A DNA stretch of 64,000 bases. Origin: a virus. A model generated the notes under the pieces. That model saw only the letters and a program-made list of their open reading frames with translations, ran no database searches and was not told the DNA's origin. A program made the translations under genes and the position numbers. Of the stretch, positions 1,058 to 44,456 are shown in pieces. Each line of letters begins with the position of its first letter. The first letter of the stretch is position 1. The stretch lies in the IMG/VR virus record IMGVR_UViG_3300005403_000006. One strand, given 5' to 3'.

Positions 1058-1471
1058 TTATTTTAATAAATTTCCGTATGAATCACCTCCTAATATATCA
1101 CCTCTTAATAAAGGAAGATTTCGTTGTAATGCTTTTTCAAACCACTGTCCTCCACTCCCTTTTCTACTCCAATTAGTATTTGCATCATCAAATTCATGTA
1201 CAAACCTCGCATAAGCTACTGTAAATCCCATTGTGATATAATAAGAACCCCCACTCCAAGATAACGGTGCCCTCCAAGAAGCTTTAAGAGTACCCCCTTT
1301 TTCCTTTCTTACAGGAGTGAATGGAGGTATTTCTTCCATTTCCCTACGTACTCTCATGGCAAATCTAACTAACCCAGCACCTGAACGTACCTTCAACCCT
1401 TGCAATTCTGCATTAAGTTTTGCCTCTATTTGAGTTAATCCTGTTACACGTACACCAGTAAAGTTTGTCAT
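1058..1471 (-). CDS. neck/tail assembly protein (HK97 gp10-like, tentative)
   Basis: 137-aa ORF in the head-tail joining block, abutting 1471..1824. The family call rests on size and position only. Confidence 0.3.
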   Translation of the reverse strand: MTNFTGVRVTGLTQIEAKLNAELQGLKVRSGAGLVRFAMRVRREMEEIPPFTPVRKEKGGTLKASWRAPLSWSGGSYYITMGFTVAYARFVHEFDDANTNWSRKGSGGQWFEKALQRNLPLLRGDILGGDSYGNLLK

Positions 1472-1824
1472 TATACACTCACTTTCTTATAAATAGTAAC
1501 ACCTTTTAAATTAACAAATGTCTCAATCTGCATTACAAGATAGGCACCATCTATCAATTTAGGATTAGCCAGTTGTGCTTCTGTTAAATCAGTTAATTCT
1601 CCTAAATACACCCAATTCTCCTTTTGTACATCAGCCAAAGTATATAAATGTGCTTTTGATTCTTGCGTTTCCCTGTTATTATTTACAATTAAATCAAGTT
1701 TATCCTCCCAACGTCCTTTTATTTCTGTAGGAGCCGCAAAAGTCATAGTATTATATCCATTGTTTACGGGTGTAGCCCATAAAACAATAGTTTGTGTAAA
1801 TAGCCTTTGTAATAAACTGTTCAT
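1471..1824 (-). CDS. head-tail adaptor / head-closure protein (tentative)
   Basis: 117-aa ORF in the late operon between connector-like ORFs. No diagnostic motif seen. Confidence 0.3.
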   Translation of the reverse strand: MNSLLQRLFTQTIVLWATPVNNGYNTMTFAAPTEIKGRWEDKLDLIVNNNRETQESKAHLYTLADVQKENWVYLGELTDLTEAQLANPKLIDGAYLVMQIETFVNLKGVTIYKKVSV

Positions 1825-1830
1825 AATACC

Positions 1831-2205
1831 TTATGTAAAACTTGTTACTGCAAAAATTGAAGCCTGTCGTTTAATAGCTGCTTGTATTACTCCTAAATAG
1901 TCTAATATTAATACCATCTGTCCGTATTGGGTCATTAATAATCCACTACCCCACCAACCTGAGTATGTTACTTTTGCATCACCTAATTCCTCTATTTTAG
2001 TAGTTCTAATCAATACTAAGGCAATTAAATGTGCTGATAACCATTTTTCTATTTCCACTAAATTAGCTTCGGGCATTCCTTTATCTGTAAATACCGTAGT
2101 TATATACAAGTTAGCAGTATTGATAAATGGCAATATCTGTGCCTCTGTGAGAGTAGTATCTCCCATAATTGCTTGCACTTCCGTATATGTCACTCTATTT
2201 GCCAT
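1831..2205 (-). CDS. head-tail connector protein (gp6-like, tentative)
   Basis: 124-aa ORF that is first after the glycan island. Size and position are typical of head completion proteins. Confidence 0.3.
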   Translation of the reverse strand: MANRVTYTEVQAIMGDTTLTEAQILPFINTANLYITTVFTDKGMPEANLVEIEKWLSAHLIALVLIRTTKIEELGDAKVTYSGWWGSGLLMTQYGQMVLILDYLGVIQAAIKRQASIFAVTSFT

Positions 2206-2863
2206 ATTCTTTATTTTTAAAGGTTAATATATAGGATTTTAATTCCTCAGTAACATCAACATTTACCCAATCTAATACTTCCATCAATTGTGTTAAATCA
2301 CCTTGCAATATTCTTTCAGGGTATAATACTTTTATATTGGTATTTTTTTCAAACATTTCTAAAATACGTTCCTCATATTGATGCACCCACCATTTCCATC
2401 CTTGTGCAACTGTGGAAACATTTACAGCCTCCCGTACTTTTGGATGCTCAAAAGCCTTCATGTAACTTGTATGAAGGCAAGAATTAATAATATCTCCCGT
2501 CCTTCTTCGTACTATAATCCATTTTGCATCAGGGTAAACAGCATCCCATACCTTCCAAATCAATAATGCTTTACTGTCTTTCACAAACCAATTAACATTA
2601 GCAGGTTTATCTATTGCCTTTTCCACCCAGGTGTCCCATTCTTTTACTAACTTGTACGTAACAGGTAAAGGGTATTGCCCTTTTATATCAGCATTGATAC
2701 CCATAAAATATGAATGAATTACTAAATTTTGTAATTTCCTGTTCTCAAAAGAATTAATCCTATCAATACCTCCACTATACACTTCTGCCTTATCTAAAAT
2801 TTGTGCGATAATGCCTCCTCCACTTCGAGGAACTCCTGCTATTATAATAGGACTATTTTTCAT
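2195..2863 (-). CDS. sulfotransferase-like protein
   Basis: The N-terminal GVPRSGGG resembles the 5'-phosphosulfate binding loop of PAPS-dependent sulfotransferases. IIVRRRTGDIINS resembles their 3'-phosphate binding motif. The ORF overlaps both neighbours in the sugar-enzyme operon. Confidence 0.5.
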   Translation of the reverse strand: MKNSPIIIAGVPRSGGGIIAQILDKAEVYSGGIDRINSFENRKLQNLVIHSYFMGINADIKGQYPLPVTYKLVKEWDTWVEKAIDKPANVNWFVKDSKALLIWKVWDAVYPDAKWIIVRRRTGDIINSCLHTSYMKAFEHPKVREAVNVSTVAQGWKWWVHQYEERILEMFEKNTNIKVLYPERILQGDLTQLMEVLDWVNVDVTEELKSYILTFKNKEYGK

Positions 2864-4106
2864 ATTGTGCTAATACTTTTTGTTTTTCTGCCTTCTTTTC
2901 AGATGTAGGAACCGTTCTTACTTTTTGTTTATCATGCCTACGATATATCGCTAAAATATGATTACAATATCCTATTTTAAATCCTGCTTTAAGACACCTT
3001 AAATTAAATTCAAACTCCTCTTGTGTGTTCAATGTTTCATCAAAACCACCTAAAGCATCAAATATTTCCCTCTTATACATTAAAGTAGGGCAATGTATTG
3101 TGTTCCTTAATTTTAAATCATGTATAGTAGGAGTGGGGATTGAAGAAACGTATATCTTTTTTTCTCCTGTTGCCTGCGTCAATTCAGTGGCATTACCATG
3201 AATAAAATCAGCTCCAGTTTCCTCAAAACATTTCAAAGCATCTTCAATACTACCTGGAGTAAGCATATCATCCTCATGTAAAAACTTGATATAATCACCT
3301 GTTGCTTGTGGTAATGCTTTGTTAAAGTTAGCAGGCCAGTTACCTTCACCTTGGCTTACTATTAATTGTACCCATTTAGGAACACTTTCAATAGCATCTT
3401 TTAACCAACCTCTATCTACTTTGTAAGGAATTATGACAGTAACTTTTGGATGATACTCTTTATTTATATAATCTTTCACCCATTGTTCTTTGGCTTCAAA
3501 GATTCTTGGGTGCCCATGAAAGCAAACTATCCCCGCATTTTCGGGTAAGGATTGAATGAAGCCTAATTTAGGCTTAGCATCTACAATAGTATTTGTTATT
3601 TGTTGAAAGAATAATTTATTGGAAATAAATCTACGAAGCATGACATCCATTCTAAATCCTTCTTTTCCTTTAAATTTACCCCAAACTTCTTTTATAGTTA
3701 CAGAACTTGCAGGAAACCACATTAATCCTGTTGCTAATTCACCTTTTTGCCAAAAATCCTCAAGTGTAATCACTTCTCCTCTATGGTCTTTAATTAAATC
3801 AAATATATTTTCCAATGATTGAAATATCGCTGTATCAAGGTCAATATAAAGGAAAGGTCTATATTTTTCCATTTCAGGGCTGTATAATTGAACACGTGAC
3901 CATGTTCCTGGAGCATCTCCTTTTAATGGGATTATATGAAGGTTTCCTAAATTATACTCCTGACTTGCTTTGTCCCAAAGTAAAATAATATTAGGTTTAC
4001 CTTCTTTCCATAAACCAATAATATGCCGTACAATCAGTTCTACATCCCTGAAAGCAAAGTCACCTCCCGACTTTAATACCAATACTATTGTTTTTATATT
4101 ACCCAT
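2853..4106 (-). CDS. two-domain glycosyltransferase (N-terminal GT-A-like, C-terminal GT2-like)
   Basis: The C-terminal half has VTVIIPYK and FLHEDDMLTP (GT2 first strand and acidic DxD-type motif). The N-terminal half has LYIDLDTAI. Confidence 0.65.
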   Translation of the reverse strand: MGNIKTIVLVLKSGGDFAFRDVELIVRHIIGLWKEGKPNIILLWDKASQEYNLGNLHIIPLKGDAPGTWSRVQLYSPEMEKYRPFLYIDLDTAIFQSLENIFDLIKDHRGEVITLEDFWQKGELATGLMWFPASSVTIKEVWGKFKGKEGFRMDVMLRRFISNKLFFQQITNTIVDAKPKLGFIQSLPENAGIVCFHGHPRIFEAKEQWVKDYINKEYHPKVTVIIPYKVDRGWLKDAIESVPKWVQLIVSQGEGNWPANFNKALPQATGDYIKFLHEDDMLTPGSIEDALKCFEETGADFIHGNATELTQATGEKKIYVSSIPTPTIHDLKLRNTIHCPTLMYKREIFDALGGFDETLNTQEEFEFNLRCLKAGFKIGYCNHILAIYRRHDKQKVRTVPTSEKKAEKQKVLAQYEK

Positions 4107-5067
4107 TCTGTTCCCAATATTGTAGCATTTCTATTAGTAATGTTTCAAATGTATATTCAGGCTCCCATTTTAATAATATTCTAGCTTTATTAGAATCTCC
4201 ACATAAATAAGGTAATTCCTCTGCCCGCATAAATTTTTTATTTTGTACTACATAATCTTTATAATTTAACCCAAAATAATTAAATGCAAAATTACAAATA
4301 TCTCTTACAGAATGAGTTTTACCTGTTGCTATAACTAAATCAATAGGAGTATGATGATTAATAATCAGCCACATTGCCTTTACATAGTCAATGGCATGTC
4401 CCCAATCTCTATAAGAATCTAAATTACCTAATTCTAAAATATTAGTTTTTTTATGATAAATATCTACAACACCTCTTATTATTTTTTGAGTAACAAATGA
4501 ACTGCCTCTCTTAGGACTTTCATGATTAAATAATATCCCATTACATACAAACATATCATAAGCCCTCCTGTAATGTCTTGACAAATCGTATGCCATTACT
4601 TTACTAATACCGTAAGGACTAACTGGATTCATTGGAGTTGATTCTCTTTGATATTTATCATCATCAATAGATAATCCAAACATCTCACTACTCCCAGCAT
4701 TGTATATTCGTGTATTAGGACAAACTTTTTTACATATTTCTAATAATTTAAAAGTTCCCATTCCATTGACCTCCATTGTATATTCAGGTATATCAAAACT
4801 AACCCTTACATGAGATTGAGCAGCCAAATGAAATATATAATCAGGTTGTATTTGTTTTAACGCATTTTCCAACGAACAATAGTCAGTCATATCCGCGTAA
4901 TACAATTTAATTTTATTTTGTAAATGGTTTATTCTAAATGTTTGATTTTCTGATACTGAATTTCTACGAATAATTCCGTAGATTTCATACCCTAAAGACA
5001 AAAGATATTCGGCTAAATACAATCCGTCTTGACCATTAATGCCTGTAATAAAAACTTTTTTACTCAT
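4099..5067 (-). CDS. gmd: GDP-mannose 4,6-dehydratase
   Basis: Canonical blocks are present: FITGINGQDGLYLAEYLL, HLAAQSHVRVSF, SSEMFG, SPYGISK (YxxxK) and GILFNHESPKRGSSFVTQKI. Confidence 0.9.
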   Translation of the reverse strand: MSKKVFITGINGQDGLYLAEYLLSLGYEIYGIIRRNSVSENQTFRINHLQNKIKLYYADMTDYCSLENALKQIQPDYIFHLAAQSHVRVSFDIPEYTMEVNGMGTFKLLEICKKVCPNTRIYNAGSSEMFGLSIDDDKYQRESTPMNPVSPYGISKVMAYDLSRHYRRAYDMFVCNGILFNHESPKRGSSFVTQKIIRGVVDIYHKKTNILELGNLDSYRDWGHAIDYVKAMWLIINHHTPIDLVIATGKTHSVRDICNFAFNYFGLNYKDYVVQNKKFMRAEELPYLCGDSNKARILLKWEPEYTFETLLIEMLQYWEQNG

Positions 5068-6005
5068 TTCCTAATATATTGATAATTATCCATAAACCAT
5101 TTATATGTTTTTTGAAGTCCTTCTTTTATTTCTGTCTTTGCTTCCCATCCTAATTTATTAATTTTGCTCACATCTGATACTCTTTCTTTAACTCCCTCTG
5201 GAAAAGAAGTATCCCAAAGTATATTTCCTTCATATTTAAAAATATCTTTAATAATATTTACTAAATCTTTAATTGATATAATTTTTCCTGAACCTATATT
5301 AATATGGTCAGATGAATCATACGTATTCATAAGGAAAATCAAAGCACCAACTAAATCTTCCACATACAAAAACTCCCTTTTAACATTTCCTGTACCCCAA
5401 ACAGTAATCATATTTTCTTTATTCATTACAGCCTCATTAAATTTAAAAAATAATCCCGGAATAACATGAGAATTCATAGGGTTAAAATAATCACCTTCTC
5501 CATAAAGATTAGGAGGCATTACTGTAATAAAATTACTCCCATACTGTTTATTGTAGGCTTTACACATTTCTATTCCTGCTATCTTAGCCACTGCATATGC
5601 ACTATTAGTTGACTCTAGTTTTGAAGTCATTAAATATTCTTCTTTTATTGGTTGAGGACATTCTTTAGGATATACACAAACAGACCCACAAAATAATAAT
5701 TTACGCACATTACAAATCCTTGCTGCCTCAAATACATTGCATTGTATCATAAGATTTTCATAAATAAAAATACCACTCATTGTATTATTTGCATTTATCC
5801 CACCTACACGAGCAGCCAAATGAAATACATAATCAGGCTTTACTCTATCAAACAAATCCATTACCATATTTGAATTAATCAAATCACAATCATTTCTACC
5901 TATAGAAATGACGTTCCAATAACCAAGTCTAAGGAGTTCCTCATATAAGATAGAACCAACCATCCCTTTACCTCCTGTTATTAATATTTTATCGTTTTTA
6001 TTCAT
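5064..6005 (-). CDS. fcl: GDP-L-fucose synthase (3,5-epimerase/4-reductase)
   Basis: Extended-SDR layout with ILITGGKGMVGS and YAVAKIAG (YxxxK). It is 313 aa and lies directly downstream of gmd with a 4-nt overlap. Confidence 0.8.
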   Translation of the reverse strand: MNKNDKILITGGKGMVGSILYEELLRLGYWNVISIGRNDCDLINSNMVMDLFDRVKPDYVFHLAARVGGINANNTMSGIFIYENLMIQCNVFEAARICNVRKLLFCGSVCVYPKECPQPIKEEYLMTSKLESTNSAYAVAKIAGIEMCKAYNKQYGSNFITVMPPNLYGEGDYFNPMNSHVIPGLFFKFNEAVMNKENMITVWGTGNVKREFLYVEDLVGALIFLMNTYDSSDHINIGSGKIISIKDLVNIIKDIFKYEGNILWDTSFPEGVKERVSDVSKINKLGWEAKTEIKEGLQKTYKWFMDNYQYIRK

Positions 6006-6006
6006 A

Positions 6007-7218
6007 TTAACCTATTATTTGTAATTTAGGACAAGGAACAATAAATTTGCCTCCATTCTTTAGGTATTCTTTTTCCCTTTCCCTAAATACTGTAATGAAG
6101 TGCCAAGGCATTATTAATAAATAATCAGGCTGTACTTTCCTCATTTCTTCCTCTGAATAGATGGTTATATTTGACCCAACCGTACGTAATCCCCACTTGT
6201 AAGGGCTACGGTCTGCAATCCCATCAATCATAGAACTATCAATCTGAAAATACTGTAATAATGTGTTCCCTTTAGTAGATGCACCATACCCCCATATCGT
6301 TTTTCCTTTAGCTTTTTCAGTATATATAAAATCGTATAGTTCTTTTCCAAGTTTTTGTATCGCTTTAAACCAGGCATTCCATGTTTCTGTTTCTTCAATT
6401 TTGCATTGTGCCTCATACGCAAACAATGAGGCTATCCTAATATCACAAACATCCCTATGTGGTTGACTACCAAATAATTCAACATTTCCTTTAGTTTTCA
6501 TAATAAACAACCTGAATGACCCTCCATTTATGTCATTTATTTGACAGTCAACTATTTTAAACCCATTTCTATTTAATAGTTTCTCAATATTTCCTAATGA
6601 GTAATAATAAAAATGTTCATGGCAAATATTATCAAATGCCATTTGTTTTAGCATCAATGGGGTATAAGACATTTGCATAACTAGTAACCCATCATCATCC
6701 ATAATTTCGTTAATGTCACCTAAGAATGTTTCCCTATCTTCAATATCATAAAACATTGCTATTGCAGTAATAACCTTAGCTTTCCTACTTGGTAAATATT
6801 CTTTGTATACTCTTGTTGAAAAGTAATCCTGAATAATAATATTGGAATTTGTAATTGCTTCATCATAAAAAGAATCTTCCGCAGGGTCAATCCCTATTTT
6901 AACTAATTTATTGGAAACGTAACTCAATAATGTACCATCATTACAAGCTATGTCTAACCAAACATCATTTGTATGTACCTTATAAATAGATGTGATAGAA
7001 TCAACAATATCCTTTAATCCTTGCTTCATACTTTCATTGGTACCTGACCGATACCAATATTTACCAAACATTATCTTCCTTTCATTGTAATGAGATAAAC
7101 GAACAGCACCATCATCATCCATTACCAATGTCAATTCATCAACTCCTTTTGTAGCAGGTACATTAACTTCCAAAAAGTCAGAAATGTACAAATTACCAAG
7201 CGTGAATAGCTCATTCAT
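6007..7218 (-). CDS. SAM-dependent sugar C-methyltransferase (NDP-hexose C-methyltransferase-like)
   Basis: Class I SAM motif LDIACNDGTLL. The C-terminal block IWGYGASTKGNTLLQY is typical of the C-methyltransferase C-terminal domain. Confidence 0.65.
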   Translation of the reverse strand: MNELFTLGNLYISDFLEVNVPATKGVDELTLVMDDDGAVRLSHYNERKIMFGKYWYRSGTNESMKQGLKDIVDSITSIYKVHTNDVWLDIACNDGTLLSYVSNKLVKIGIDPAEDSFYDEAITNSNIIIQDYFSTRVYKEYLPSRKAKVITAIAMFYDIEDRETFLGDINEIMDDDGLLVMQMSYTPLMLKQMAFDNICHEHFYYYSLGNIEKLLNRNGFKIVDCQINDINGGSFRLFIMKTKGNVELFGSQPHRDVCDIRIASLFAYEAQCKIEETETWNAWFKAIQKLGKELYDFIYTEKAKGKTIWGYGASTKGNTLLQYFQIDSSMIDGIADRSPYKWGLRTVGSNITIYSEEEMRKVQPDYLLIMPWHFITVFREREKEYLKNGGKFIVPCPKLQIIG

Positions 7219-8075
7219 AGTATTGTTTTTAAATAGTCCTCAAACCAAAATTCTGAATAACTTTGCGCTAAATTACAATTTTTTATTTTAAATGGCAAAT
7301 CTTTTATGGTTTCAAAATAAATGCAGTCACCAAATCCAGCCTCAATGTCATAATATTTTAAAGTATTAATTCTTACTTGATGAATTGGAATTGCTTTTAC
7401 TAATAAAGCCTCGTAAAATCTAAAATTAAAAGCATTTGCATTCCCAATAGGAGAAAACACAAATCTATATTTTGCTAAGGTGTTCATGTAATCCCTCCAA
7501 CTTTCAAACTTAGGAGGAATAATATCAATTTCAATCTGTTTTGAAATTTCCTTCAAAGTATGCTTCCTTTCTGAATAGCATTCTCCATTTACCTTTCCTA
7601 TAAATACTACTTTATTTAATTTTTCAGGAACTTCAATAAAATCCTTGTAAAACCTTGAAAATAAAGAACGGTGTAATTTTGTTCCTAATTTTTCGCAATC
7701 ATCTACATCAACTGTAAAATGCACTAAGTATTTAAATTGTTTAATATCTGCATACCGCTGTGGATTATGTGCAAAAAATGAATCAAATATACGTTCTGTA
7801 ATAAATACTACTACTTTAATTTTATTGGCATTACATGTATCTATAAATCCTTCCTGCATAAAAACTGTACGATGTTCAGGATAATGTGAATCCCCTATAA
7901 AAAGAGTATCTATTCCCTCCAAATCTTCTTTTGATTTAACTACTCTTAAAACACCATATAAATTGGTTAAAGCAAAGTAAAATTGCCTAATATTATGACA
8001 CTTTGAATACTCCAAATCACATATAATGCCTACTTTCATAACTCTTATTTTGAAAACATCGGTATTAAAGCCCAT
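7215..8075 (-). CDS. putative glycosyltransferase (exostosin/GT47-like C-terminal motif)
   Basis: KYRFVFSPIGNANAFNFRFYEALLVKAIPI resembles the exostosin-type motif. The same motif recurs in 8809..9669. Confidence 0.35.
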   Translation of the reverse strand: MGFNTDVFKIRVMKVGIICDLEYSKCHNIRQFYFALTNLYGVLRVVKSKEDLEGIDTLFIGDSHYPEHRTVFMQEGFIDTCNANKIKVVVFITERIFDSFFAHNPQRYADIKQFKYLVHFTVDVDDCEKLGTKLHRSLFSRFYKDFIEVPEKLNKVVFIGKVNGECYSERKHTLKEISKQIEIDIIPPKFESWRDYMNTLAKYRFVFSPIGNANAFNFRFYEALLVKAIPIHQVRINTLKYYDIEAGFGDCIYFETIKDLPFKIKNCNLAQSYSEFWFEDYLKTIL

Positions 8076-8812
8076 TTTTTATCCCATACATGACATCCTG
8101 CAAAATGCCTAAAAATAACATCTTTAGGATTATTTGTTACTGTTTTAAACCTAAAATAAGGACTATGTCCTGCAAAATCAGTAACATTCCATTCAACAGG
8201 AAGTATTTCAACATTGCTTTTTAATTCCTCAATCGTATAAACAGGCTCATTTTCAGTAGTTGAATGCCACCCTAAATTAGGAAAAGTATTCCACCCGGGT
8301 TGAGTTTTATTGGCAAAATCTGCCGTAATACCTGCTAATGAATACCAGCAAGCCTGTTCATGAAACATCTGCCAAAAGGGGGTATCTTTATATTTCAAAT
8401 ACCTATTTTCATCTAATAAATTATTCAACATCTTTTTTGACCATTCAGTAACTTTAATACTAAATGCACCCATGCAATGAGTATTACAAGAATCAATGGC
8501 ATAAGTAAAAGATTTACCTTTAGAAGGTTCAAAAGATTCCTCTCCATTTACTATACATATATCTGCATCAATTTGACTGATAATATCACCTTCTTTTAAT
8601 TTACCTGTTTCGATCCAATGTCTAATTAAAAAGAAACGCCACCAGACTAATTTTCTTTGTTTACATTCTTTGGGAATAGTATTTAAATTCGTTATTTCAA
8701 TATAATGGAAACCGTGATGTTCACAATATTGTTTATTTCTTGGGGAATGATACTTCAAAAAGTGTTCCTGTCTTTCATCAGGATAACTAGCTATGCACAA
8801 TAAATATTTCAT
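8045..8812 (-). CDS. putative nucleotide-sugar transferase (GT-A-like)
   Basis: QIDADICIV is a DxD-like motif. The ORF is embedded in the glycosyltransferase operon with overlapping junctions. Confidence 0.3.
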   Translation of the reverse strand: MKYLLCIASYPDERQEHFLKYHSPRNKQYCEHHGFHYIEITNLNTIPKECKQRKLVWWRFFLIRHWIETGKLKEGDIISQIDADICIVNGEESFEPSKGKSFTYAIDSCNTHCMGAFSIKVTEWSKKMLNNLLDENRYLKYKDTPFWQMFHEQACWYSLAGITADFANKTQPGWNTFPNLGWHSTTENEPVYTIEELKSNVEILPVEWNVTDFAGHSPYFRFKTVTNNPKDVIFRHFAGCHVWDKKWALIPMFSK

Positions 8813-9669
8813 ATGGTTACTATTTTATATTTCCAATAATCAAAATCTAACATACTCAAATCCCATTGTGCATTCTTAATCCTATCATATTCTTTGTTCA
8901 AAAATTCCTCTGTAATTTCTTCCCAACTATCAACAAAACATATTGGAAGATTTATATAGAAACGGTTGTTTAAATTCCTTTTTTCAATCGGAATTGTTCC
9001 TAAGTACAAACATTCCCAGGTTCTATGTGTATCAATACCGTTCCCTTGTGGACTTAATACAAATTTATGATTATAAATATTATCCAAGTAAACATCAAAA
9101 TCCTTACCGTTTGCTCCTTTATCAATCGTGGCCCAACTTTTATTTCTAAATAGTACATAAGGAGAAACACGTTCAATAGGATTAGTAACTACATTATGAT
9201 TAATGTACAATAAGTTTTTATATTGTTTAGGAGCAGTAATTTTAGCCCTCAATTTATCCATTTTATGAATATGAGGAAACCATCTGTTATTTTCTAACCC
9301 TATTGGAATACTTTCTATTCGAGAATCAGTAACATCAACATTTTTAGAATACCATTTAATTACATTTTTAGGTATTTCAAATTTATAAAGGCTTTGGCGT
9401 TCACCATTCCCTCCTGGACGTGAAATACCTTCTGCTACTACTGAACAATCACAACTATGGGTTATCAGAATGAATTTATAATCAGGTAAATTAGTAATTA
9501 TACTAATTAAGGTAGGAGCATATACAAGATGTGTGTATATAATATTAACATCCTTCAATAAACTAATATCAAAGGTATTTTTCAGGTTGTCATAATCATC
9601 TCTATGTTTCAGATTAGGACTATAACAAAAATCTGCTATTGATTTAAACATTTCCCCTTGTATCCACAT
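8809..9669 (-). CDS. putative glycosyltransferase (exostosin/GT47-like)
   Basis: The C-terminal NHKFVLSPQGNGIDTHRTWECLYLGTIPI matches the exostosin-family pattern. Confidence 0.4.
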   Translation of the reverse strand: MWIQGEMFKSIADFCYSPNLKHRDDYDNLKNTFDISLLKDVNIIYTHLVYAPTLISIITNLPDYKFILITHSCDCSVVAEGISRPGGNGERQSLYKFEIPKNVIKWYSKNVDVTDSRIESIPIGLENNRWFPHIHKMDKLRAKITAPKQYKNLLYINHNVVTNPIERVSPYVLFRNKSWATIDKGANGKDFDVYLDNIYNHKFVLSPQGNGIDTHRTWECLYLGTIPIEKRNLNNRFYINLPICFVDSWEEITEEFLNKEYDRIKNAQWDLSMLDFDYWKYKIVTI

Positions 9670-9670
9670 A

Positions 9671-10414
9671 TTACATTGATTTTATTAGTTGTTCAATCTG
9701 TTTAGTGGCTACTCCACAACCATGTGCATTATTTTTATACCAACTACCTTTATGTATTCTATGAGTATAACTCAACCCATCTACTACCCACATATAGTTT
9801 CCTTGTAGTAACCATAAATAAGAAAAATATAAGGCATCATTCACACTTAAATTAGTATCTTCATTTATTGCTTCATGTACTTCCAAATATTTTGCTTTGT
9901 TGACAAAAAAGTTACCTGTATTTAAGCTAGTTGTAAAGGATGGAAATCGTAATTTTTCTTTTGCATTACGTTTGGTAATTAATTGCTGTTTAAAATTGCT
10001 GTAATCCCATTCAATTTTATTATTTTCACTATATAGTGTCATAGGGCAATAAATAGTACCAGGAATTGCATGTACCGCAAGAACCTTATTAATATACTCA
10101 TTGTCTATAATATTGTCAGAATCTAAAAGTACCACCCATTCATTTTTACACGCATTTATGGCCTTATATTTGTTTTTAAACGGTTTTAAGTTTCTGTTAT
10201 TTCTAAGTAATTTAATTTTAGAATTATTCATATTTTGTACCATTTGCCACAAAAGCAAATAACATTTTACATCAGAATAATCATCCATTATAACAATATC
10301 ATCAATAGCAGGATTATTTAAAACCTTACTAAATGATTCTATGGTCATTGTACTACGGTTATATGTTGGTATGGCTAAGCTAATCATCTTTTTAAATATA
10401 GTGCATCTCCCCAT
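9671..10414 (-). CDS. family 2 glycosyltransferase
   Basis: ISLAIPTYNR, IMDDYSD and LLDSDN motifs are typical of GT2. Confidence 0.75.
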   Translation of the reverse strand: MGRCTIFKKMISLAIPTYNRSTMTIESFSKVLNNPAIDDIVIMDDYSDVKCYLLLWQMVQNMNNSKIKLLRNNRNLKPFKNKYKAINACKNEWVVLLDSDNIIDNEYINKVLAVHAIPGTIYCPMTLYSENNKIEWDYSNFKQQLITKRNAKEKLRFPSFTTSLNTGNFFVNKAKYLEVHEAINEDTNLSVNDALYFSYLWLLQGNYMWVVDGLSYTHRIHKGSWYKNNAHGCGVATKQIEQLIKSM

Positions 10415-10998
10415 GTTTTAGGTGTAATGTCAGTTAATACTCTTTTAAATCCATACAGTCCTAAAAACAAATCTAATTCCTCAACTTGTACACAACCTTT
10501 ATACACTTGTTCCAAATTTATTTCTGAATAAATAATATCAATACATTCAAGGGTGTTAATAGCTCCTTTAAATACTTCTAATTCATATCCTTGAACATCA
10601 ATATTAATCATATTGTAAACAGTCTTTAAATTCATGTCATCCAACCTAAACATTGATACAGTTTCCATAGTATCAAACGTTATGTTAGGATATTTATTTA
10701 AATGTGTTCCGGGTTCTAATACAGAACAACTCATTCCATGATTAGCAGTCTCCACAAACATATCAACTATTCCTGTTTTATTGCCTAATGCCACATTAAA
10801 TGCTTTAATATGTTCATTTCTTGGAATTTGTTTAACTAATTCTCTGAAATTACTATTAATAGGCTCAAAGAATACCATTTCAGAAATTCCTTGTTTTTTG
10901 TAAGCATTATATTCCTGCCCACAATGTGCACCGATATGAATAACACCTTTTATGTTTATTTTATAATCGGTTACTATTTTATTTAATGGAATAATCAT
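10384..10998 (-). CDS. FkbM-family methyltransferase (likely sugar O-methyltransferase)
   Basis: The blocks IHIGAHCGQE and IDVQGYELEVFKGA are typical of the FkbM methyltransferase domain. Confidence 0.7.
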   Translation of the reverse strand: MIIPLNKIVTDYKINIKGVIHIGAHCGQEYNAYKKQGISEMVFFEPINSNFRELVKQIPRNEHIKAFNVALGNKTGIVDMFVETANHGMSCSVLEPGTHLNKYPNITFDTMETVSMFRLDDMNLKTVYNMINIDVQGYELEVFKGAINTLECIDIIYSEINLEQVYKGCVQVEELDLFLGLYGFKRVLTDITPKTWGDALYLKR

Positions 10999-11771
10999 AA
11001 AGCAATCCAGTGTTTAGGAAAATTATAACTCAACCCCGTTAATACTCCTTCTTTAACTCTCCAATTCTTAGGAGCAATAACTATATCAGTGTCATTTTTA
11101 TTAATTAAAGCGGACCAATAACTGAAGGTACTGTTTGCAATTATCTTTGTTTTACATATCCTCATTAATTCAAAAGAATGATGCACATTGGTGTTAACAA
11201 AAGTGATGTTTCTTCCAAAATACTCTTCCTTAAATAATTCTTTACACCAATCTAAATCATCACTAAAAACAAATAAATCTCCTTTAGTTCTTGAAATAGC
11301 TTCAATATAATATACAAAAGGAAGCACATAACAAGCATTTTTTGAAACGTAATCACCCCTACGAACATGTACCATTACTGATTCTGTTTCCTCAATCTGT
11401 TTTTTGTACTTTAAAAATTCTTCTGTATAAAATTCAGGTTTTAACACAAATTCATTTTTTAATCTATCTAATACTGTGGAATAATACATAGGATGTTGCC
11501 AGTACCCTTTAAAAGTACCCGTAAGTGATCTAACCTGCTCCACCCATTTAGTATTAAATTTACGTATCATTGATTCCCACAACCCTCGGGGAGTTCCTGA
11601 ATTAGTAAAAGTTATGTTTACATTAAATTTTTCAATTTCAAAAGGCCTTTCTGGGTCACGAGGAACATTATACCATTCTTTATTGAATATCACGTCCTCT
11701 CCCATTGCTTTACCAAAAGCATATTGATAAAATTGATTCCCTAAACCTCCACAAAATCTAACTATTCTCAT
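10995..11771 (-). CDS. alpha-1,2-fucosyltransferase (GT11)
   Basis: The N-terminal GGLGNQFYQYAFG and the HVRRGDY motif are both diagnostic of GT11. Confidence 0.85.
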   Translation of the reverse strand: MRIVRFCGGLGNQFYQYAFGKAMGEDVIFNKEWYNVPRDPERPFEIEKFNVNITFTNSGTPRGLWESMIRKFNTKWVEQVRSLTGTFKGYWQHPMYYSTVLDRLKNEFVLKPEFYTEEFLKYKKQIEETESVMVHVRRGDYVSKNACYVLPFVYYIEAISRTKGDLFVFSDDLDWCKELFKEEYFGRNITFVNTNVHHSFELMRICKTKIIANSTFSYWSALINKNDTDIVIAPKNWRVKEGVLTGLSYNFPKHWIAL

Positions 11772-12454
11772 ATAATCTGTTTTAAACTTATTCTTGGAAA
11801 ATTTTCGATTGCACTTTTTGGATTTACATTTATTATTTCTACTCCTAATTCTTTGGCATCTTTCGCAATTGCTGGAAACCCTAATAAATGCCTAGCAAAA
11901 GGAAGTTTATGAGGAGGGCGTTTATTTGTGTTTCTACCATAAACATTATGCCAGTGTTCATTTTCTTTGTTATTCAAGTTCATATCAAATCCTAACAAAA
12001 AAATCCTTTTAGCCCCTAAATGATATGCTAAATTAATTGCAGCGGCTCCGCTATTCCCATTCCAACTAACATGACTACTTCTGGTAGTGATTCCTTGTGA
12101 TTTATTATTGTCTTTTGGAATATATTTTATCCATTCTTTTTGTGCTTTATCCTGACAAGATGATTTTACTCCTTTAAAATCTGCCAATCCTTGTTGATGA
12201 CTTAAATAAAATCCATTATCTCCAAAAAACACAATATCAATAATAGTTTCTCCTAACAAATAAGCAGCATTAACACCAATAACATGTTTATTTTTTAAAT
12301 AAGATAGGTAAGGAGTATAACTTGATGGGTTTAGCGTTCCATTAGAAACCCTTTCTACTATGTTAGAAGGAATTTCAAATTGTTCGGAAACTGATGGCCC
12401 TCCACCAACAATCCAACAGTCACCTCCTTCCCATATCTTTGGTATTTTCCACAT
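11768..12454 (-). CDS. DUF115/Maf-like putative glycosyltransferase
   Basis: CWIVGGGPSV and SGAAAINLAYHLGAKRIFLLGFDMN resemble the MptE-like/DUF115 fold found in motility-associated-factor protein glycosyltransferases. Confidence 0.35.
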   Translation of the reverse strand: MWKIPKIWEGGDCWIVGGGPSVSEQFEIPSNIVERVSNGTLNPSSYTPYLSYLKNKHVIGVNAAYLLGETIIDIVFFGDNGFYLSHQQGLADFKGVKSSCQDKAQKEWIKYIPKDNNKSQGITTRSSHVSWNGNSGAAAINLAYHLGAKRIFLLGFDMNLNNKENEHWHNVYGRNTNKRPPHKLPFARHLLGFPAIAKDAKELGVEIINVNPKSAIENFPRISLKQII

Positions 12455-12819
12455 TACTTTGAGAGGTCTTCAATAAGTTTATCAGCAACCTCTTTTTCAA
12501 GAGGTTTCTCATTTAATACTTTTCCAGCAGGGTTTACAATGTTAAATAACCCTCTTTTAACTTCTTTTAAAGTGTAAACAACCGGAGAAGGTGCAATATC
12601 TTTTTTAACCTCTTCAACTACACCATCCACTGGTATAATCACATCACGGAATTGAGTAGGAATTAACTCCTTTTGCATCCTAAATATTTCACCAGGTTTG
12701 ATAATTTTACTACCAATCCTTAATGAACCTCCACCTATTTTCTTCCATCTAGGAAGTATTTCGGAAGATATTTCTGTAGGTAAAATAATGCCCTTACCTG
12801 GTTTAATTGTTCTTTCCAT
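12454..12819 (-). CDS. hypothetical protein between the capsid gene and the glycan island
   Basis: 121-aa ORF on the coding strand that abuts 11768..12454. No recognisable motif. Confidence 0.5.
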   Translation of the reverse strand: MERTIKPGKGIILPTEISSEILPRWKKIGGGSLRIGSKIIKPGEIFRMQKELIPTQFRDVIIPVDGVVEEVKKDIAPSPVVYTLKEVKRGLFNIVNPAGKVLNEKPLEKEVADKLIEDLSK

Positions 12820-12865: not shown

Positions 12866-13978
12866 CTACGCCAAATGTACAATACCACTATTTCCGTTTT
12901 GGTCACTACGAATTTGTGGAACTTGTATAGTGAGAACTTTATATTTGGTAACAAATTTACCTTCAACAGTCCATTCAACATTCTGTAATCCCATTCCACG
13001 TACTAAACGAACTACATCAGGAGTCATTTGTACTAGCAACACATTATCAGCAGTCAAAGTATCTACAACCTTAATAGCCGTAATATTAGAGATTTTCAAA
13101 ATCCTCTCACGAATAGTAGTACCGGGAGTAGTTGCATCATAATCAGAATCTAAAACCGTTTCATACCCAGTAGGAATATACAATGTATATGGTCCGTAAT
13201 GTTTAGCATTGATTGCAGTTTGCTTTAATGAAAGCACTTGGTCAACTATTGTTTTACCTCCATTAGCTGTATCACTATCAAAATCTAAATCATCCCAATG
13301 AGTTCCAATAGATACTGTATTACGGTCAGGGTGATTAACATACGAATAAATTGTATTTAATGACCTTGAATCTTTTTCACCAAAAGAATAAGTAGTATTG
13401 GTAAACAACATTGATTCCAACTTTTCAGAAACTCTACGGGCAGCCATTTCTGCGGTAGTAGTGTCAAGTGGATTTCCTAAACTACGACTTGCTGCTAATA
13501 CCCTTGCATTGATTTCATAATCAACGTGAATAATAGGGATAGGCAAGTAGTTGTGTTTAAAATTAGGCCTGTCATTCTTACTTCTGGTAACACCGTCCAT
13601 AGTCAAAGCAGCTTCCATATTATCAGAAACATCATGCCATTCAAGAACTGTGGTTCCCATAGCATTTCCCAGGTTGTACACAAGATTTTTATCAATCAAA
13701 TCCTGAATACCTCCTAAACGAGTGCGACTAATTTGTAAAATAGCATCATCTAATGTTTTCCACTCATCCCTACGAAGAGTTGCATTAACATTCAATTGTT
13801 TGGTAATATAGCTATTTACATTCTTAGGATCTCCTCCTACATAAGCAGTAATGTACGTATTACTATCCTTGCCAATATAAGGGCGCATAGCTCCTACATT
13901 CAGTCCATTATTTTGCAATTGCCCAGCTACTTCACCGTGCCCTTGTCCATTTACAATTAAATCTACATTTGTATTCAT
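12866..13978 (-). CDS. major capsid protein (putative)
   Basis: 370 aa with a very strong RBS (AAAAAAAGGAGG, 6 nt before the ATG). It lies downstream of the portal, Mu F-like, scaffold-like and decoration-like ORFs. Confidence 0.6.
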   Translation of the reverse strand: MNTNVDLIVNGQGHGEVAGQLQNNGLNVGAMRPYIGKDSNTYITAYVGGDPKNVNSYITKQLNVNATLRRDEWKTLDDAILQISRTRLGGIQDLIDKNLVYNLGNAMGTTVLEWHDVSDNMEAALTMDGVTRSKNDRPNFKHNYLPIPIIHVDYEINARVLAASRSLGNPLDTTTAEMAARRVSEKLESMLFTNTTYSFGEKDSRSLNTIYSYVNHPDRNTVSIGTHWDDLDFDSDTANGGKTIVDQVLSLKQTAINAKHYGPYTLYIPTGYETVLDSDYDATTPGTTIRERILKISNITAIKVVDTLTADNVLLVQMTPDVVRLVRGMGLQNVEWTVEGKFVTKYKVLTIQVPQIRSDQNGNSGIVHLA

Positions 13979-13993: not shown

Positions 13994-14491
13994 TTAAATT
14001 ATTTGAACTTTAATCCATTGTGAATTAGTTTCTAATGAGGATTCTGAACCTTCAAGTGCTGAAAGGTCTTGGGCTTCCAAGGCAATTCCTACTATATGTT
14101 GGCTATAAATTGAATGTGCTTGTTGGGCATCATTTGATTCCCAACTTTCATTAGAACGGCTTACCTTTCTTAAATTACCATTACCTGCTGATTCTAATGA
14201 ATCACCAATTATGACATTCTCACCATCATTTAAACGGGCATAAACAATGTCACCTCTCATAGCAACCCAAACCTGAACTTGGTCAGCAGCAGCATACGCC
14301 TCAGAAATTGTTTTACCTTGTAAATCATCCTCAACAGCAAACAAGCCTCCTTGAGTTCTACCAGCAAGGGAATGTGCTTGTACCTTTCCTGCCGAAGTAA
14401 TCTCCAATAACATCCCAGGAGTAATTGCAGCAGCAGCCACATATTCTTCTTGATGTTGGAGATAATTTTTTAACTTAATCGTGTTATACAT
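13994..14491 (-). CDS. head decoration / auxiliary capsid protein (tentative)
   Basis: 165-aa ORF directly upstream of the capsid gene with a strong RBS (AAAGGAGGAGAAATG). Confidence 0.35.
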   Translation of the reverse strand: MYNTIKLKNYLQHQEEYVAAAAITPGMLLEITSAGKVQAHSLAGRTQGGLFAVEDDLQGKTISEAYAAADQVQVWVAMRGDIVYARLNDGENVIIGDSLESAGNGNLRKVSRSNESWESNDAQQAHSIYSQHIVGIALEAQDLSALEGSESSLETNSQWIKVQII

Positions 14492-14506: not shown

Positions 14507-16015
14507 TTATTTAGTTTCCATTTCAATCCCAGCGGGATATAATGGAGCTTCTTTACTTACATTTACAGAAACACCACTATTAATATACACACCTGTTGTA
14601 TTAGGTACTTCCTTTACAGGAATAGAGTTTGCAATACGTTCTAATGTATCATTAGACATATTGTTCAATGTAGCAGTATCCCACACACCTTCTGCGGTAT
14701 TAGCTACAATTTTCTGTACTAAGCCATCCCGATGAGCTTTTAGTTGCTGCTTTCCAAATTCTAAAGCACTTTTATCCTCGGCACTCAACTGCTCAACGGC
14801 ATTTGTTTGTACTTCTTTTTTCACTTCTTTAGGAACCATTTTGGTAAGTTGTTCCTCTGAAAGAGTTTCCAACCATACCTTATCGGCCTCAACGAAATTT
14901 GTCCCAACATGAGCAATTAACCCTGCGGCCAATTCATTTACTTTTGCCATTTCATTACCTCCTTTTTCATTAACATTAAATTTTGTTCTTTTCATATTTA
15001 CCGCAATTTCATACGATACTTTTTTAACCACACTAATAGGTTCTCCGTCAAACGCAACTACACCTGAATCATTAATAGTGTACTTTTGTTTATACAAAGA
15101 AGAACCTCTCCTTTGGTTTCTGGATTCAATTCTATACACTATGGTATTGTCATTGCTGACATCTTCCAAATAGTACATAGTTTCTCCATTATCCATGTTG
15201 TCAATAAACCGCCGTATCAGATTTACTCTTTCTAATATACCCACCTCATTAATTTGTAAACATTCGGCACATACATTAGTTGAGAGTAAACCTAAATTTA
15301 AAGGCTTTACTGATTCAAGCAATTGGTTTAATTCATTACTACTCATATCTTCTTTTTTATAAGTAATTAACTCCTTAAACACATCCTGTTTTGTCATAAG
15401 CTGTCCTCCTTTCACATTATCATTAATATTTAATTTATTTTCACTTTTACTATTTACACGTATTCCACAACCATCTTCCGTAGAACACGCTCCTCTATCA
15501 AATGGAAGTATTGCTAAATGGTCAGGTATATGATTTATTGCTTCATTTGTAATAACCACACTTCCATCATCCATTACAAGTTGTGTCTCCCTTACATCTG
15601 TGAACACACCTACACTAACATTTATAATCTCACCTCCGTTAATACGATGTAATAAGTCAGGTTGATACGCCGTCATCTTTGTAATATCCAACCATGCCTC
15701 AGCTTTTAATTGGGGACCTTCTACACGTGTATTTCGTATGATACCTACTTTATCATGGTCTTTTACACATTCTGAATTAGCAGATACGTAGTTATCACCT
15801 TCCTTAGGATGATTAATAACTATTGGAATATTATTCCAATCGGGTTTCCCTAATTCTGTAATACTATGATACAAAGGTCCCATAGACCCACTATGTACTC
15901 CATCTTGCATCATAATAACAGGAACCACTAAATAGTTTCTACCATCTAATATTTCATTCCGTGCCGTATAATTTGAGGTACGAAAATTGATGTTAATTAT
16001 TTTGTTTTCCATCAT
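14507..16015 (-). CDS. scaffolding and/or prohead-protease-like protein (tentative)
   Basis: 502-aa ORF between the Mu F-like gene and the decoration/capsid genes. The C-terminal half is coil- and charge-rich. Confidence 0.3.
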   Translation of the reverse strand: MMENKIININFRTSNYTARNEILDGRNYLVVPVIMMQDGVHSGSMGPLYHSITELGKPDWNNIPIVINHPKEGDNYVSANSECVKDHDKVGIIRNTRVEGPQLKAEAWLDITKMTAYQPDLLHRINGGEIINVSVGVFTDVRETQLVMDDGSVVITNEAINHIPDHLAILPFDRGACSTEDGCGIRVNSKSENKLNINDNVKGGQLMTKQDVFKELITYKKEDMSSNELNQLLESVKPLNLGLLSTNVCAECLQINEVGILERVNLIRRFIDNMDNGETMYYLEDVSNDNTIVYRIESRNQRRGSSLYKQKYTINDSGVVAFDGEPISVVKKVSYEIAVNMKRTKFNVNEKGGNEMAKVNELAAGLIAHVGTNFVEADKVWLETLSEEQLTKMVPKEVKKEVQTNAVEQLSAEDKSALEFGKQQLKAHRDGLVQKIVANTAEGVWDTATLNNMSNDTLERIANSIPVKEVPNTTGVYINSGVSVNVSKEAPLYPAGIEMETK

Positions 16016-16017: not shown

Positions 16018-16944
16018 TCAGGTTTTAATTACTTCATAAGGAAGTGCAATACATCTACAATTCGGATGCTGAGGCACCAGATTCATTGCTTCATCTAAAG
16101 TATAAAAGTTTCCTTCTAGTGCATTGCAAGCAGGACAAACTTGATTATCTCCAGCAGTTAAAATCTCTGCCATAATATACACTCCAACATCACTATATGA
16201 CCTGTACTGATTAATAGTGGCTCTATGGTGGGCTCTTACTATTTCAGTACGTGCCAATGTTTCAGCTCTTCTTTGTGCAGGAATGAAACGCCCTAAGCTA
16301 TCAGTTATCCCTAAATCACCTAAACCCTTACCATTAATTGCTGCTACTAATTTATCAGCAATCTTCTTTGCACTATCACCATTTGCTAATCCTTCCGCTA
16401 ATACAGTACGTATAACATGCTCCATTGCAACCGTAATCTCTTTTAGATTAGTAAATACTCTATTATAGAGTACATCTAAGGCTTCCATATGCAAAGAGGT
16501 TCTCATCATTTGTTCAATAGTAGGAGCATCTACTCTCATTCCTATTTTTTGCATTTCCAAAGCACCTCGTTGTATTCCTCTTTTGTATCCTTCAAAAATA
16601 TATTTGTTTTGCCACATAGAGCTCATTTGTTGCATTAGCTCCAATTCAAAAATAATTGCTTCTACTTGAGAATTAAACCATAACATAAATGCAGCAACTT
16701 TTTCAGCATTAGTAGGATGGTCAAATTGATTACGTCCTGCTGCATTTGCCATATTAACTGATAAAGAATTGCTCAAACCAAAACAATCATTTCCTACTAT
16801 ACTTTCCTGTACTATACGGGTCAGTTTAACAAACCGTCGTTTAAAATCAGCAACAAATGAAGTACGCAAAGTCAAGGTTCTTGTTGGGTCATACCTTTCT
16901 TTCTGTACCCTAGTATAAGTTTGTATATTACAAGTATCACACAT
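16018..16944 (-). CDS. head morphogenesis protein (SPP1 gp7 / Mu F family)
   Basis: The C-terminal PQHPNCRCI motif is characteristic of the family. The track starts this ORF at 16986, but the ATG at 16944 lies 1 nt after the portal stop and is the more likely start. Confidence 0.7.
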   Translation of the reverse strand: MCDTCNIQTYTRVQKERYDPTRTLTLRTSFVADFKRRFVKLTRIVQESIVGNDCFGLSNSLSVNMANAAGRNQFDHPTNAEKVAAFMLWFNSQVEAIIFELELMQQMSSMWQNKYIFEGYKRGIQRGALEMQKIGMRVDAPTIEQMMRTSLHMEALDVLYNRVFTNLKEITVAMEHVIRTVLAEGLANGDSAKKIADKLVAAINGKGLGDLGITDSLGRFIPAQRRAETLARTEIVRAHHRATINQYRSYSDVGVYIMAEILTAGDNQVCPACNALEGNFYTLDEAMNLVPQHPNCRCIALPYEVIKT

Positions 16945-16945
16945 A

Positions 16946-43895: not shown

Positions 43896-44456
43896 TTATA
43901 ATTTAATTAAGGTAAATAATTCTGCCTTAGCACTTGCATCGGTCATAAATACTCCTTTTAAAGAACTTGTCACCATTGTAGAATGCTGTTTTGATACTCC
44001 TCTCATTCGCATACACATGTGGCTTGCCTCTATGATACATGCAGCAGCTTTCGGTTTAAGAATCTCCATTAAAGCTGTTGTAACTTGTTCCCCAATTCGT
44101 TCCTGAATCTGCAAACGCCTTGCATAAATATCAACAAGCCTAGCTAATTTAGATATTCCTATTACTTTGTCTCCAGGGATATATGCTACATGTGCTTTCC
44201 CGTAAAATGGTAACATGTGATGCTCACACATTGAAAACATCTCTATATCCTTCAACAAAACAATTTGGTCGTATCCATCTGCTGCAAATGTTGTAAGAAC
44301 GTCCTCAGGTTTCTGTTTATATCCTGCATATAATTCATTCCAACTTTTTATTACACGTTTAGGAGTATTAAGTAACCCTTCTCTATCAGGGTCCTCTCCA
44401 ATTGCTGCAAGGGTGTACCTAATAACACCTTCATCCATACTATCAACTAAGTTCAT
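43896..44456 (-). CDS. folE: GTP cyclohydrolase I
   Basis: [20 protein letters not shown] and [11 protein letters not shown] are canonical FolE blocks. Confidence 0.95.

Follow-up and report, generated by a model that had tools for sequence, protein, structure and literature searches.

The locus considered here raises the question of what an uncultured tailed phage might do with some ten kilobases of sugar-processing genes placed in the midst of the genes that build its particle. The DNA in question is a stretch of 64,000 nucleotides, below called the window, from the IMG/VR virus record IMGVR_UViG_3300005403_000006. On its minus strand, at 2195–12454, twelve consecutive and mostly overlapping open reading frames (ORFs) lie between a capsid block and a set of head-tail joining genes; the coordinates and flanks given in a preliminary description of the window were confirmed. 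Between the genes for the major capsid protein (MCP) and a small conserved protein (orf121) on one side, and the head-tail genes on the other, the phage lineage keeps a glyco-slot that is hypervariable, and the island is one of its alleles. The answer judged fairly probable here is that the slot enzymes glycosylate, and possibly sulfate, virion proteins in the host cytoplasm.

A conserved slot with a hypervariable interior

Relatives were collected by means of the MCP. IMG/VR contains 198, of which 80 loci, with MCPs 62–81% identical, were kept. The slot is defined as the interval from orf121 to ht124, one of the head-tail joining genes, and 46 loci span the complete region. Slot length in these ranges from 721 to 9478 bp, with a median of 4.7 kb. 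Both ends are conserved: a short Maf-like protein (mini-Maf) is encoded by the first gene in 45 of the 46 slots, and a sulfotransferase-like protein by the last gene in 38. Recurrence in 45 of 46 relatives means that the arrangement is not a matter of chance. The preliminary description had called such a system unusual; it is in fact the rule in this lineage, and mini-Maf cassettes are likewise carried by cultured phages of Pseudomonas, of Caulobacter and of the P1-like group.

The interior of the slot comprises 290 ORFs in 85 clusters, 42 of which are confined to one locus. Phages with MCPs that are 93–96% identical have 17–38% of their slot clusters in common, and one of them (locus L037) carries mini-Maf alone. 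The interior glycosyltransferases are mainly of the GT2, GT9, exostosin/GT47-like and TcdA types, with others besides; they are accompanied by many S-adenosylmethionine (SAM) methyltransferases and by nucleoside diphosphate (NDP)-sugar enzymes (DegT aminotransferase, epimerases, UDP-glucose dehydrogenase). The cassette of the window is the largest seen. Of the 41 distinct complete slots, it alone has recognisable homologs (at least 30% identity over half the length) of the window's genes for GDP-mannose 4,6-dehydratase (gmd) and for a C-methyltransferase; divergent gmd-like matches occur in a few other slots.

By MCP, the nearest cultured relative is the Brevundimonas siphovirus MaInes (36% identity), which has an empty arrangement in which the MCP gene is followed by small ORFs and then by tail genes. 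The relatives sit in metagenome-assembled genome (MAG) bins that bear the names of about ten or more different phyla or classes, and are probably mis-binned phage contigs; with bins as diverse as these, the earlier designation 'Bacteroidota-type phage' is unsupported. Metagenomic relatives of the slot proteins run to hundreds (768 mini-Maf proteins and 872 GT114-like proteins). Literature searches turned up no account of this lineage, nor any of glycan cassettes linked to capsids beyond mycobacteriophages and giant viruses.

Conserved flanks around a hypervariable interior are also seen in O-antigen, capsule and serotype-conversion loci, with which the island further shares Gmd, GDP-L-fucose synthase (Fcl), GT2, GT11 and methyltransferase genes; GT2, GT9, GT11, Gmd and Fcl are typically found in loci for O-antigens and capsules. 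This raises an alternative, namely that the enzymes remodel glycans or glycoproteins of the host envelope (lipopolysaccharide, capsule, S-layer or flagellin) at the inner membrane face, with lipid-linked or protein molecules of the host as substrates. Late in infection, such remodelling could destroy or mask receptors, and so spare progeny from being lost on debris or exclude other phages. The lack of membrane machinery, the gene order and the homologies described in the following sections make this alternative unlikely.

Soluble products within a structural operon

What sets the slot apart from surface-polysaccharide loci is, in the first instance, its lack of membrane machinery. By hydropathy, neither the island nor the 290 slot proteins from the 46 relatives include any protein with two or more hydrophobic 19-mers; the products of the island are all soluble. 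Being soluble, they would act in the host cytoplasm. Nor was any flippase, polymerase or initiating transferase found in the Pfam results for the island, in the 25 most frequent of the 68 slot families or in the ten commonest interior clusters. The earlier statement that the island has no Wzx/Wzy, initiating transferase or proteins with multiple transmembrane (TM) segments therefore agrees with both types of result. A polysaccharide or serotype-conversion cassette dependent on Wzx/Wzy or on an ABC transporter was considered and rejected, as flippase, polymerase, transporter, initiating enzyme and multi-TM proteins were not found in these searches. No larger multi-TM protein is encoded anywhere in the window; its single ORF with two hydrophobic segments (115 aa, 60113–60460) is a possible holin.

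The position of the slot likewise argues against envelope remodelling. It always lies within the run of genes from head to neck, with capsid genes on one side and neck genes on the other, not by an integrase or in a host locus, and it is translationally coupled: every junction from orf121 (12454–12819) to ht124 (1831–2205) is either an overlap or a 1-nt gap. Promoter-like and terminator-like sites, the former searched for with a model that may not fit the host, show no excess over shuffled sequence, so that nothing argues for a separate transcription unit. The G+C content is 0.308 in the island versus 0.358 in the head block.

Mini-Maf and its linkage to capsid genes

Mini-Maf (228 aa; 11768–12454, minus strand) matches phrog_4603 (3.5e-30), which is labelled 'alpha-2,3-sialyltransferase'. 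Its AlphaFold2 (AF2) model has a pLDDT of 90.3, and Foldseek comparison with the Protein Data Bank (PDB) gave a single significant match, the flagellin glycosyltransferase Maf from Magnetospirillum (M. magneticum; 5mu5; E 2e-4, probability 1.0, TMq 0.58). Next in order came GT29 sialyltransferases (ST6GALNAC2, probability ~0.8). With sequence alone, searches of the PDB returned nothing beyond a lectin repeat, which is spurious, and a weak match to MptE; structure comparison was needed. In 35 homologs, 50 columns are invariant, including clusters of His, Asp and Asn. Mini-Maf amounts to the catalytic core alone, without the N- and C-terminal (tetratricopeptide repeat (TPR)/helical) domains that bind the acceptor. 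It is therefore predicted to be Maf-like in mechanism, but is not a Maf proper, since it has the fold yet falls short of the family threshold and lacks the accessory domains. The initial classification of this ORF as DUF115/Maf-like, which fails at the Pfam threshold, stands in its structural part through the match to 5mu5. Many uncharacterised viral proteins in BFVD share the mini-Maf fold, and no paper on the function of phage mini-Maf proteins was found in the literature.

The linkage of mini-Maf to capsid genes extends well beyond close relatives. In distant members of the lineage, with MCPs 39–50% identical, mini-Maf is still encoded about 0.5–1.1 kb downstream of the MCP gene; one such example is an apparent prophage inside a 3.7-Mb Zixibacteria MAG chromosome (L092, CP070742.1). 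More distant homologs (25–32% identity) are encoded just downstream of HK97-type capsid genes of the PF05065 family, with PF04860 portals; the examples are alphaproteobacterial and Omnitrophota contigs and one isolate, Nitratireductor indicus C115. Mini-Maf is thus linked to two unrelated capsid families, a distribution that counts against envelope remodelling and strengthens the earlier proposal of virion-protein glycosylation. In N. indicus C115, the arrangement of capsid gene followed by mini-Maf is found at 4295–6595 of contig34 (L104), in an apparent prophage.

Three cultured phages show comparable arrangements. In Pseudomonas phage PAJU2 (L116/L118, 7780–9723), where gp10–gp12 belong to the structural module, the order is head-closure gene, mini-Maf (gp10), hypothetical gene, methyltransferase, gp13 and tail terminator. 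In Caulobacter phage CcrColossus (L117, 98832–103385), gp126–gp131 lie inside the structural module, in the order tail protein, mini-Maf, two hypotheticals, NDP-sugar transferase, methyltransferase and GT9. In the P1-like phage RCS47 (L119, 87022–89580), mini-Maf is located in the PmgO/PmgP morphogenesis region, with an adjoining glycosyltransferase.

Between the MCP gene and mini-Maf lies orf121 (minus strand), the stop codon of which overlaps the mini-Maf start and which was detected in almost all relatives. The family consists of two small domains, with conserved N- and C-terminal motifs around a variable linker rich in Pro, Glu, Lys and Thr. The C-terminal motif of the family (orf121 and the proteins P0245 and P0246), GKVLNEKxLKKxxAEKLIxDLxK, is duplicated in tandem in some homologs. 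The AF2 model (pLDDT 75, moderate confidence) is beta-rich, not a four-helix bundle, and gave no fold match. By analogy with Maf systems, orf121 may be an acceptor adaptor or a target.

GT114-type glycosyltransferases

The ORF at 8809–9669 (minus strand) encodes a homolog of A075L from the chlorovirus PBCV-1. In a phmmer search against the PDB (8q8i/8avq/8asa), the match to A075L had an E-value of 3e-41, with 41% identity across 189 columns that cover the donor-binding domain. A075L is the founder of CAZy family GT114. As a beta-xylosyltransferase, it attaches xylose at O4 of an L-fucose residue within the core of the N-glycan on the chlorovirus MCP; its key residues are D73, N148, R158 and R208 (PMC11571054). 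The equivalents of N148, R158, N202 (in GNG) and R208 are aligned and conserved in the phage protein. The motif THSCD may correspond to TGHSD73 of A075L; this places the D73 equivalent outside the confident local alignment. From these matches, 8809–9669 is assigned to GT114, and it may likewise transfer xylose to fucose; co-occurrence with GT11 in slots (6/7 versus 1/34; Fisher p=1e-5) lends this indirect support. No UDP-xylose synthase was found among the island proteins in the Pfam results. The nearest characterised homolog of 8809–9669 is an enzyme that builds a capsid glycan, which lends further weight to virion-protein glycosylation and counts against envelope remodelling.

A second enzyme, encoded at 7215–8075 (minus strand), is probably a divergent exostosin/GT114-like GT-B protein (PF24785 RXYLT1_C, 0.004). 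Comparison with the 8809–9669 family by hhalign gave a probability of 80% and an E-value of 1.4e-5, over the donor-binding half. There is no direct PDB match, the link to GT114 being indirect, and the protein is probably a divergent relative of the 8809–9669 fold. The two ORFs had both been described as exostosin-like: 8809–9669 is clearly a GT114/A075L homolog, and 7215–8075 is reduced to a divergent relative.

Several metagenomic GT114-like proteins are about 497 aa long (P0133, P0140, P0142, P0144, P0166, P0202). For P0166 and P0202, an FkbM methyltransferase domain (PF05050) is recorded; these two would be glycosyltransferase-methyltransferase fusions, recalling the multidomain enzymes of chloroviruses.

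Sugar supply, methylation and chain extension

Two island enzymes point to the production of GDP-L-fucose. Gmd (4099–5067, minus strand) matches PF16363 (6e-109) and TIGR01472 (5e-105), and Fcl (5064–6005, minus strand) matches NF047922 (2e-113) and PF01370 (2e-62). Both matches are full length, yet under the strict equivalog cut-offs (TIGR01472, 351 bits versus 415; NF047922, 379 bits versus 500). Next to them, at 6007–7218 (minus strand), is an NDP-sugar C-methyltransferase-like protein (PF08484 Methyltransf_14, 3e-41, and PF13489). An FkbM-family methyltransferase is encoded at 10384–10998 (minus strand; PF05050 7e-14, TIGR01444 1.4e-17).

The GT11 alpha-1,2-fucosyltransferase-like ORF (10995–11771, minus strand) matches PF01531 (4e-23; 82.5 bits versus a cut-off of 23.9) and phrog_2644 (1e-32), and contains both motifs quoted at the outset, GGLGNQFYQYAFG and HVRRGDY. 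Of the two enzymes previously assigned to GT2, 9671–10414 (minus strand) is a GT2 glycosyltransferase (PF00535, 3e-17). The other, 2853–4106 (minus strand), is better described as a two-domain glycosyltransferase, in which residues 6–148 match phrog_1962 (2e-20) and residues 210–406, at the C-terminus, match GT2 (PF13641/PF00535, 1e-8). PDB searches with 7215–8075 and 2853–4106 were uninformative. The family matches firmly support the annotations of Gmd, Fcl, the C-methyltransferase, FkbM, GT11 and GT2, all of which had been proposed at the outset. With Gmd, Fcl, GT11, GT114 and two methyltransferases present, the fucose-based, methylated chemistry envisaged earlier is plausible.

The assignment of 8045–8812 (minus strand) as GT-A-like is weaker. 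It depends on a sub-threshold match to PF03314 (DUF273, 3e-5), and the ORF, which contains a DxD-like motif (DADICIV), found no match in PDB or PHROG searches; it may be a GT-A-type glycosyltransferase.

The sulfotransferase-like end gene

The last gene of the island (2195–2863, minus strand) overlaps ht124 by 11 nt. Its product, which had been called sulfotransferase-like, scores just over the threshold of PF13469 (Sulfotransfer_3; 28.7 bits, cut-off 27), and the family profile, along its whole length, matches TPST1/2, which are protein-tyrosine sulfotransferases (E 7e-6 to 5e-5). The two motifs that bind 3'-phosphoadenosine 5'-phosphosulfate (PAPS), 5'-PSB (RSG) and 3'-PB (RRR..D...S), are conserved across 33 family members: R13, S14, G15, R120 and S128 are invariant, and R119, R121 and D124 are conserved in at least 90%. 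On this basis, 2195–2863 is placed among the PAPS-dependent sulfotransferases, with either tyrosine or a sugar as the predicted acceptor.

In locus L056, the sulfotransferase-like gene is alone in the slot, without any glycosyltransferase. A phage-made glycan is therefore not required for it. Since, in addition, protein-tyrosine sulfotransferases are its nearest solved relatives, the sulfated glycan proposed earlier is one option only.

A complete-looking pathway for modified DNA

Sugars might also be destined for the genome itself, the island then serving to glycosylate phage DNA as a hypermodification against restriction. Phage glycosyltransferases that build mono- to oligosaccharides on 5-hydroxymethylcytosine DNA do exist (bioRxiv 10.1101/2023.12.21.572611, cited in PMC12619734). 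In the window, no hydroxymethylpyrimidine-generating enzyme was found: thymidylate-synthase-like hydroxymethylases, cytosine methyltransferases and TET-type enzymes are all missing from the best 25 of the 32 Pfam families matched by the other 60 ORFs. The phage instead encodes a complete-looking 7-deazaguanine (preQ0/queuosine-type) pathway, which, to judge from the gene families, implies modified DNA. Its genes, all on the minus strand, are those for a QueF-like protein (43472–43894), FolE (43896–44456), QueC (44443–45120), a QueE-like radical-SAM protein (46361–47134) and QueD (47137–47496); a 282-aa ORF within the cluster (45124–45972) is possibly a transglycosylase. The island, moreover, is part of the structural operon and not of the replication module, and enzymes of the Maf, GT11 and GT114 types are not known to glycosylate DNA. 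Glycosylation of DNA by the island is thus very improbable.

Proposed mode of action

If virion proteins are the targets, the slot enzymes would act late in infection and decorate these proteins before or during assembly. Candidate acceptors are the MCP (12866–13978, minus strand; PF19774 DUF6260 4e-20, phrog_771 1e-23) and the head decoration protein (13994–14491, minus strand; phrog_766, 1e-13). What we infer about acceptor, donors, order of steps and timing can be put as follows. Mini-Maf would place the first sugar on Ser or Thr of a virion protein, perhaps from a host-supplied CMP-ulosonic acid; orf121, encoded in cis and translationally coupled, may confer acceptor specificity or be the target itself. 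Gmd would form GDP-4-keto-6-deoxymannose, which Fcl would convert to GDP-L-fucose, and the C-methyltransferase may turn the Gmd product into a branched deoxysugar. GT11, the GT114 enzyme, its divergent paralog, the GT2 enzymes and the two-domain glycosyltransferase would then lengthen a fucose-containing oligosaccharide, to be O-methylated by FkbM. Finally, sulfate would be added by the TPST-like enzyme, to the glycan or else to tyrosine residues of these virion proteins. Exchange of cassettes between the conserved ends would give rise to glycan 'serotypes' of the particle.

Several points weigh against this reading. Glycosylation or sulfation of the virion is a prediction from genes, and expression timing is deduced from gene order. 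The score of mini-Maf against PF01973 (MptE-like/DUF115) is 25.7 bits, with a cut-off of 34.6, and residues 111–161 fit the end of the profile alone. Neither the Pfam results for the island nor the 25 most frequent of the 68 slot families include NeuB-type or CMP-synthetase families. There is nothing distinctive by way of a Ser/Thr-rich acceptor tract in the aligned MCP and decoration proteins, and Ser and Thr together make up just 8% of orf121. The statistics on co-occurrence of the GT114 homolog with GT11 are uncorrected for phylogeny. Soluble peripheral glycosyltransferases can use host intermediates linked to undecaprenyl diphosphate (Und-PP) or other lipids, which supports envelope remodelling. 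Lastly, the PAJU2 homolog of mini-Maf, ORF010, bears the label 'structural protein' given by its depositors in GenBank, so that a non-enzymatic role in the virion is conceivable.

The last point leads to a further alternative: the targets may be other proteins of phage or host in the cytoplasm, for example in order to blunt defence, or mini-Maf and the sulfotransferase-like protein may serve in structure or assembly and have lost catalysis. Besides the PAJU2 label, the description of the P1 homologs as putative morphogenetic proteins PmgO/PmgP fits such a role, as do the solitary sulfotransferase-like gene of L056 and the solitary mini-Maf of L037. Loss of catalysis is at odds with the 50 invariant columns of mini-Maf in a high-confidence sialyltransferase-like fold and with the retention of both PAPS-binding motifs in the sulfotransferase family, and the dedicated nucleotide-sugar synthesis (Gmd, Fcl and C-methyltransferase) points to real glycan production. 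This alternative, taken as a whole, is therefore regarded as a little less likely still than envelope remodelling.

Modification of virion proteins remains the preferred reading, and a broader version of it can be offered tentatively. Capsid 'serotypes' might be found in many tailed phages of Gram-negative and environmental bacteria, produced by priming with a minimal Maf-type enzyme under the guidance of an orf121-type protein, much as GlfM guides Maf-2, by an exchangeable cassette and by TPST-like sulfation; the cassette would make an oligosaccharide particular to the lineage, with chemistry and at least one enzyme family (GT114) in common with chlorovirus capsid glycans. The fast turnover of cassettes would then reflect diversifying selection on the phage surface, and a new axis of interaction between phages and their environment or antiphage defences would come into view. 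This generalisation is speculative and rather doubtful as it stands.

Comparison with known systems

The closest functional analogues are glycosylation of the chlorovirus capsid and of mycobacteriophage virions, both of which differ from the island in architecture and enzyme set. In chlorovirus PBCV-1, soluble virus-encoded enzymes build a fucose-containing, methylated glycan on the MCP (Vp54) in the cytoplasm; besides A075L, the virus supplies GMD, the synthesis of GDP-fucose and methyltransferases. The island resembles this system in its A075L homolog (8809–9669) and in supplying GDP-fucose. PBCV-1, however, is a giant virus, whereas the island belongs to a tailed phage with a prokaryotic host and an HK97-type capsid, and its genes form one compact, exchangeable cassette within the structural operon. 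The initiating candidate in the island is Maf-like, so that O-linkage is expected, in contrast to the N-linked glucose system of PBCV-1; the island also has a sulfotransferase-like gene.

In the mycobacteriophages Che8, Corndog and Myrna, phage glycosyltransferases modify capsid and tail-tube subunits, and the glycans alter particle recognition; these systems have few glycosyltransferases, and glycosylation of the capsid is said to require two of them (Freeman et al. 2023, cited in PMC12363180 and PMC12619734). The island differs in having up to 12 genes, with nucleotide-sugar synthesis, C- and O-methylation and a sulfotransferase-like gene, and in its families (mini-Maf, GT11, GT114); no Mycobacterium phage is among the tblastn matches listed for mini-Maf or GT114. 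A slot with conserved ends and fast turnover has not been described for those phages. Mycobacteriophage glycosylation is experimentally proven, while the glycan of the island, as compared with this system and with PBCV-1, is predicted from its genes.

Maf proteins O-glycosylate Ser and Thr of flagellin in the cytoplasm, with CMP-activated nonulosonic acids, and can use pseudaminic acid (Pse), legionaminic acid (Leg), Neu5Ac or Kdo donors (PMC11339370; bioRxiv 10.1101/2020.06.03.131540). The acceptor is recognised by a C-terminal TPR domain or by GlfM, a small factor encoded in cis (bioRxiv 10.1101/2023.12.03.569772). Mini-Maf has in common with Maf (5mu5; Shewanella Maf-1 and Maf-2 with GlfM) a sialyltransferase-like catalytic fold of the modified GT-A type, and in both cases a self-assembling structural protein is, or would be, O-glycosylated before assembly. 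The conserved orf121 beside mini-Maf parallels GlfM beside Maf-2. On the other hand, mini-Maf has 228 aa compared with ~630 aa for Maf; flagellar genes and genes for nonulosonic-acid synthesis are not near it; and orf121 is beta-rich, whereas GlfM is a four-helix bundle.

Self-encoded glycosylation of virions has so far been proven only for a few mycobacteriophages and giant algal viruses. If the reading preferred here is correct, glycan-coated capsids would be common in environmental phages, and the coat would come from a modular, fast-exchanging cassette, which is similar to an O-antigen locus but has the virus particle as its target. An enzyme family shared with chlorovirus capsid glycans would hint that phages and giant viruses have exchanged genes or converged. 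Cultured handles are available in PAJU2, the Caulobacter phiCbK-like phages, the P1 PmgO/PmgP region and the Nitratireductor prophage. Practical interest lies in how stable the particles are, how they adsorb and how the immune system recognises them in phage therapy, in soluble glycosyltransferases for glyco-engineering, and in amending annotations that routinely present genes of this kind as auxiliary metabolic genes for host polysaccharides.

Flanking genes and other features of the window

Upstream of the island lie terS and terL (18517–20043), followed by the genes for the portal (16946–18397) and for MuF (16018–16986). Next to MuF, and before the decoration gene, all relatives encode a conserved 502-aa protein (14507–16015; phrog_760), which may serve as scaffold or as another protein for head decoration. 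Downstream, three small head-tail joining genes (ht124, ht117 and ht137; 1058–2205, minus strand) are syntenic in the relatives, straight after the slot; ht137 matches phrog_5 (Neck1/tail completion, 1e-5). A megablast comparison of 24 kb with GenBank phages gave no match.

A partial ORF on the minus strand (1–1040) runs off the left end of the window. By eye, its N-terminus is of the tail-terminator or minor-capsid type, and repeats with a GYxFxxW signature, recalling Listeria-Bacteroides repeats, occur further on. ARAGORN predicts a permuted tmRNA-like gene at 47466–47810, which overlaps the start of QueD and the end of a DnaB-like helicase ORF and is probably a false positive. A protein with a PAPS-reductase domain is encoded at 50542–51321, and a census of 20100–64000 also recorded, among the replication genes, a pentapeptide/decapeptide-repeat protein and a protein with a Fib_succ_major domain.

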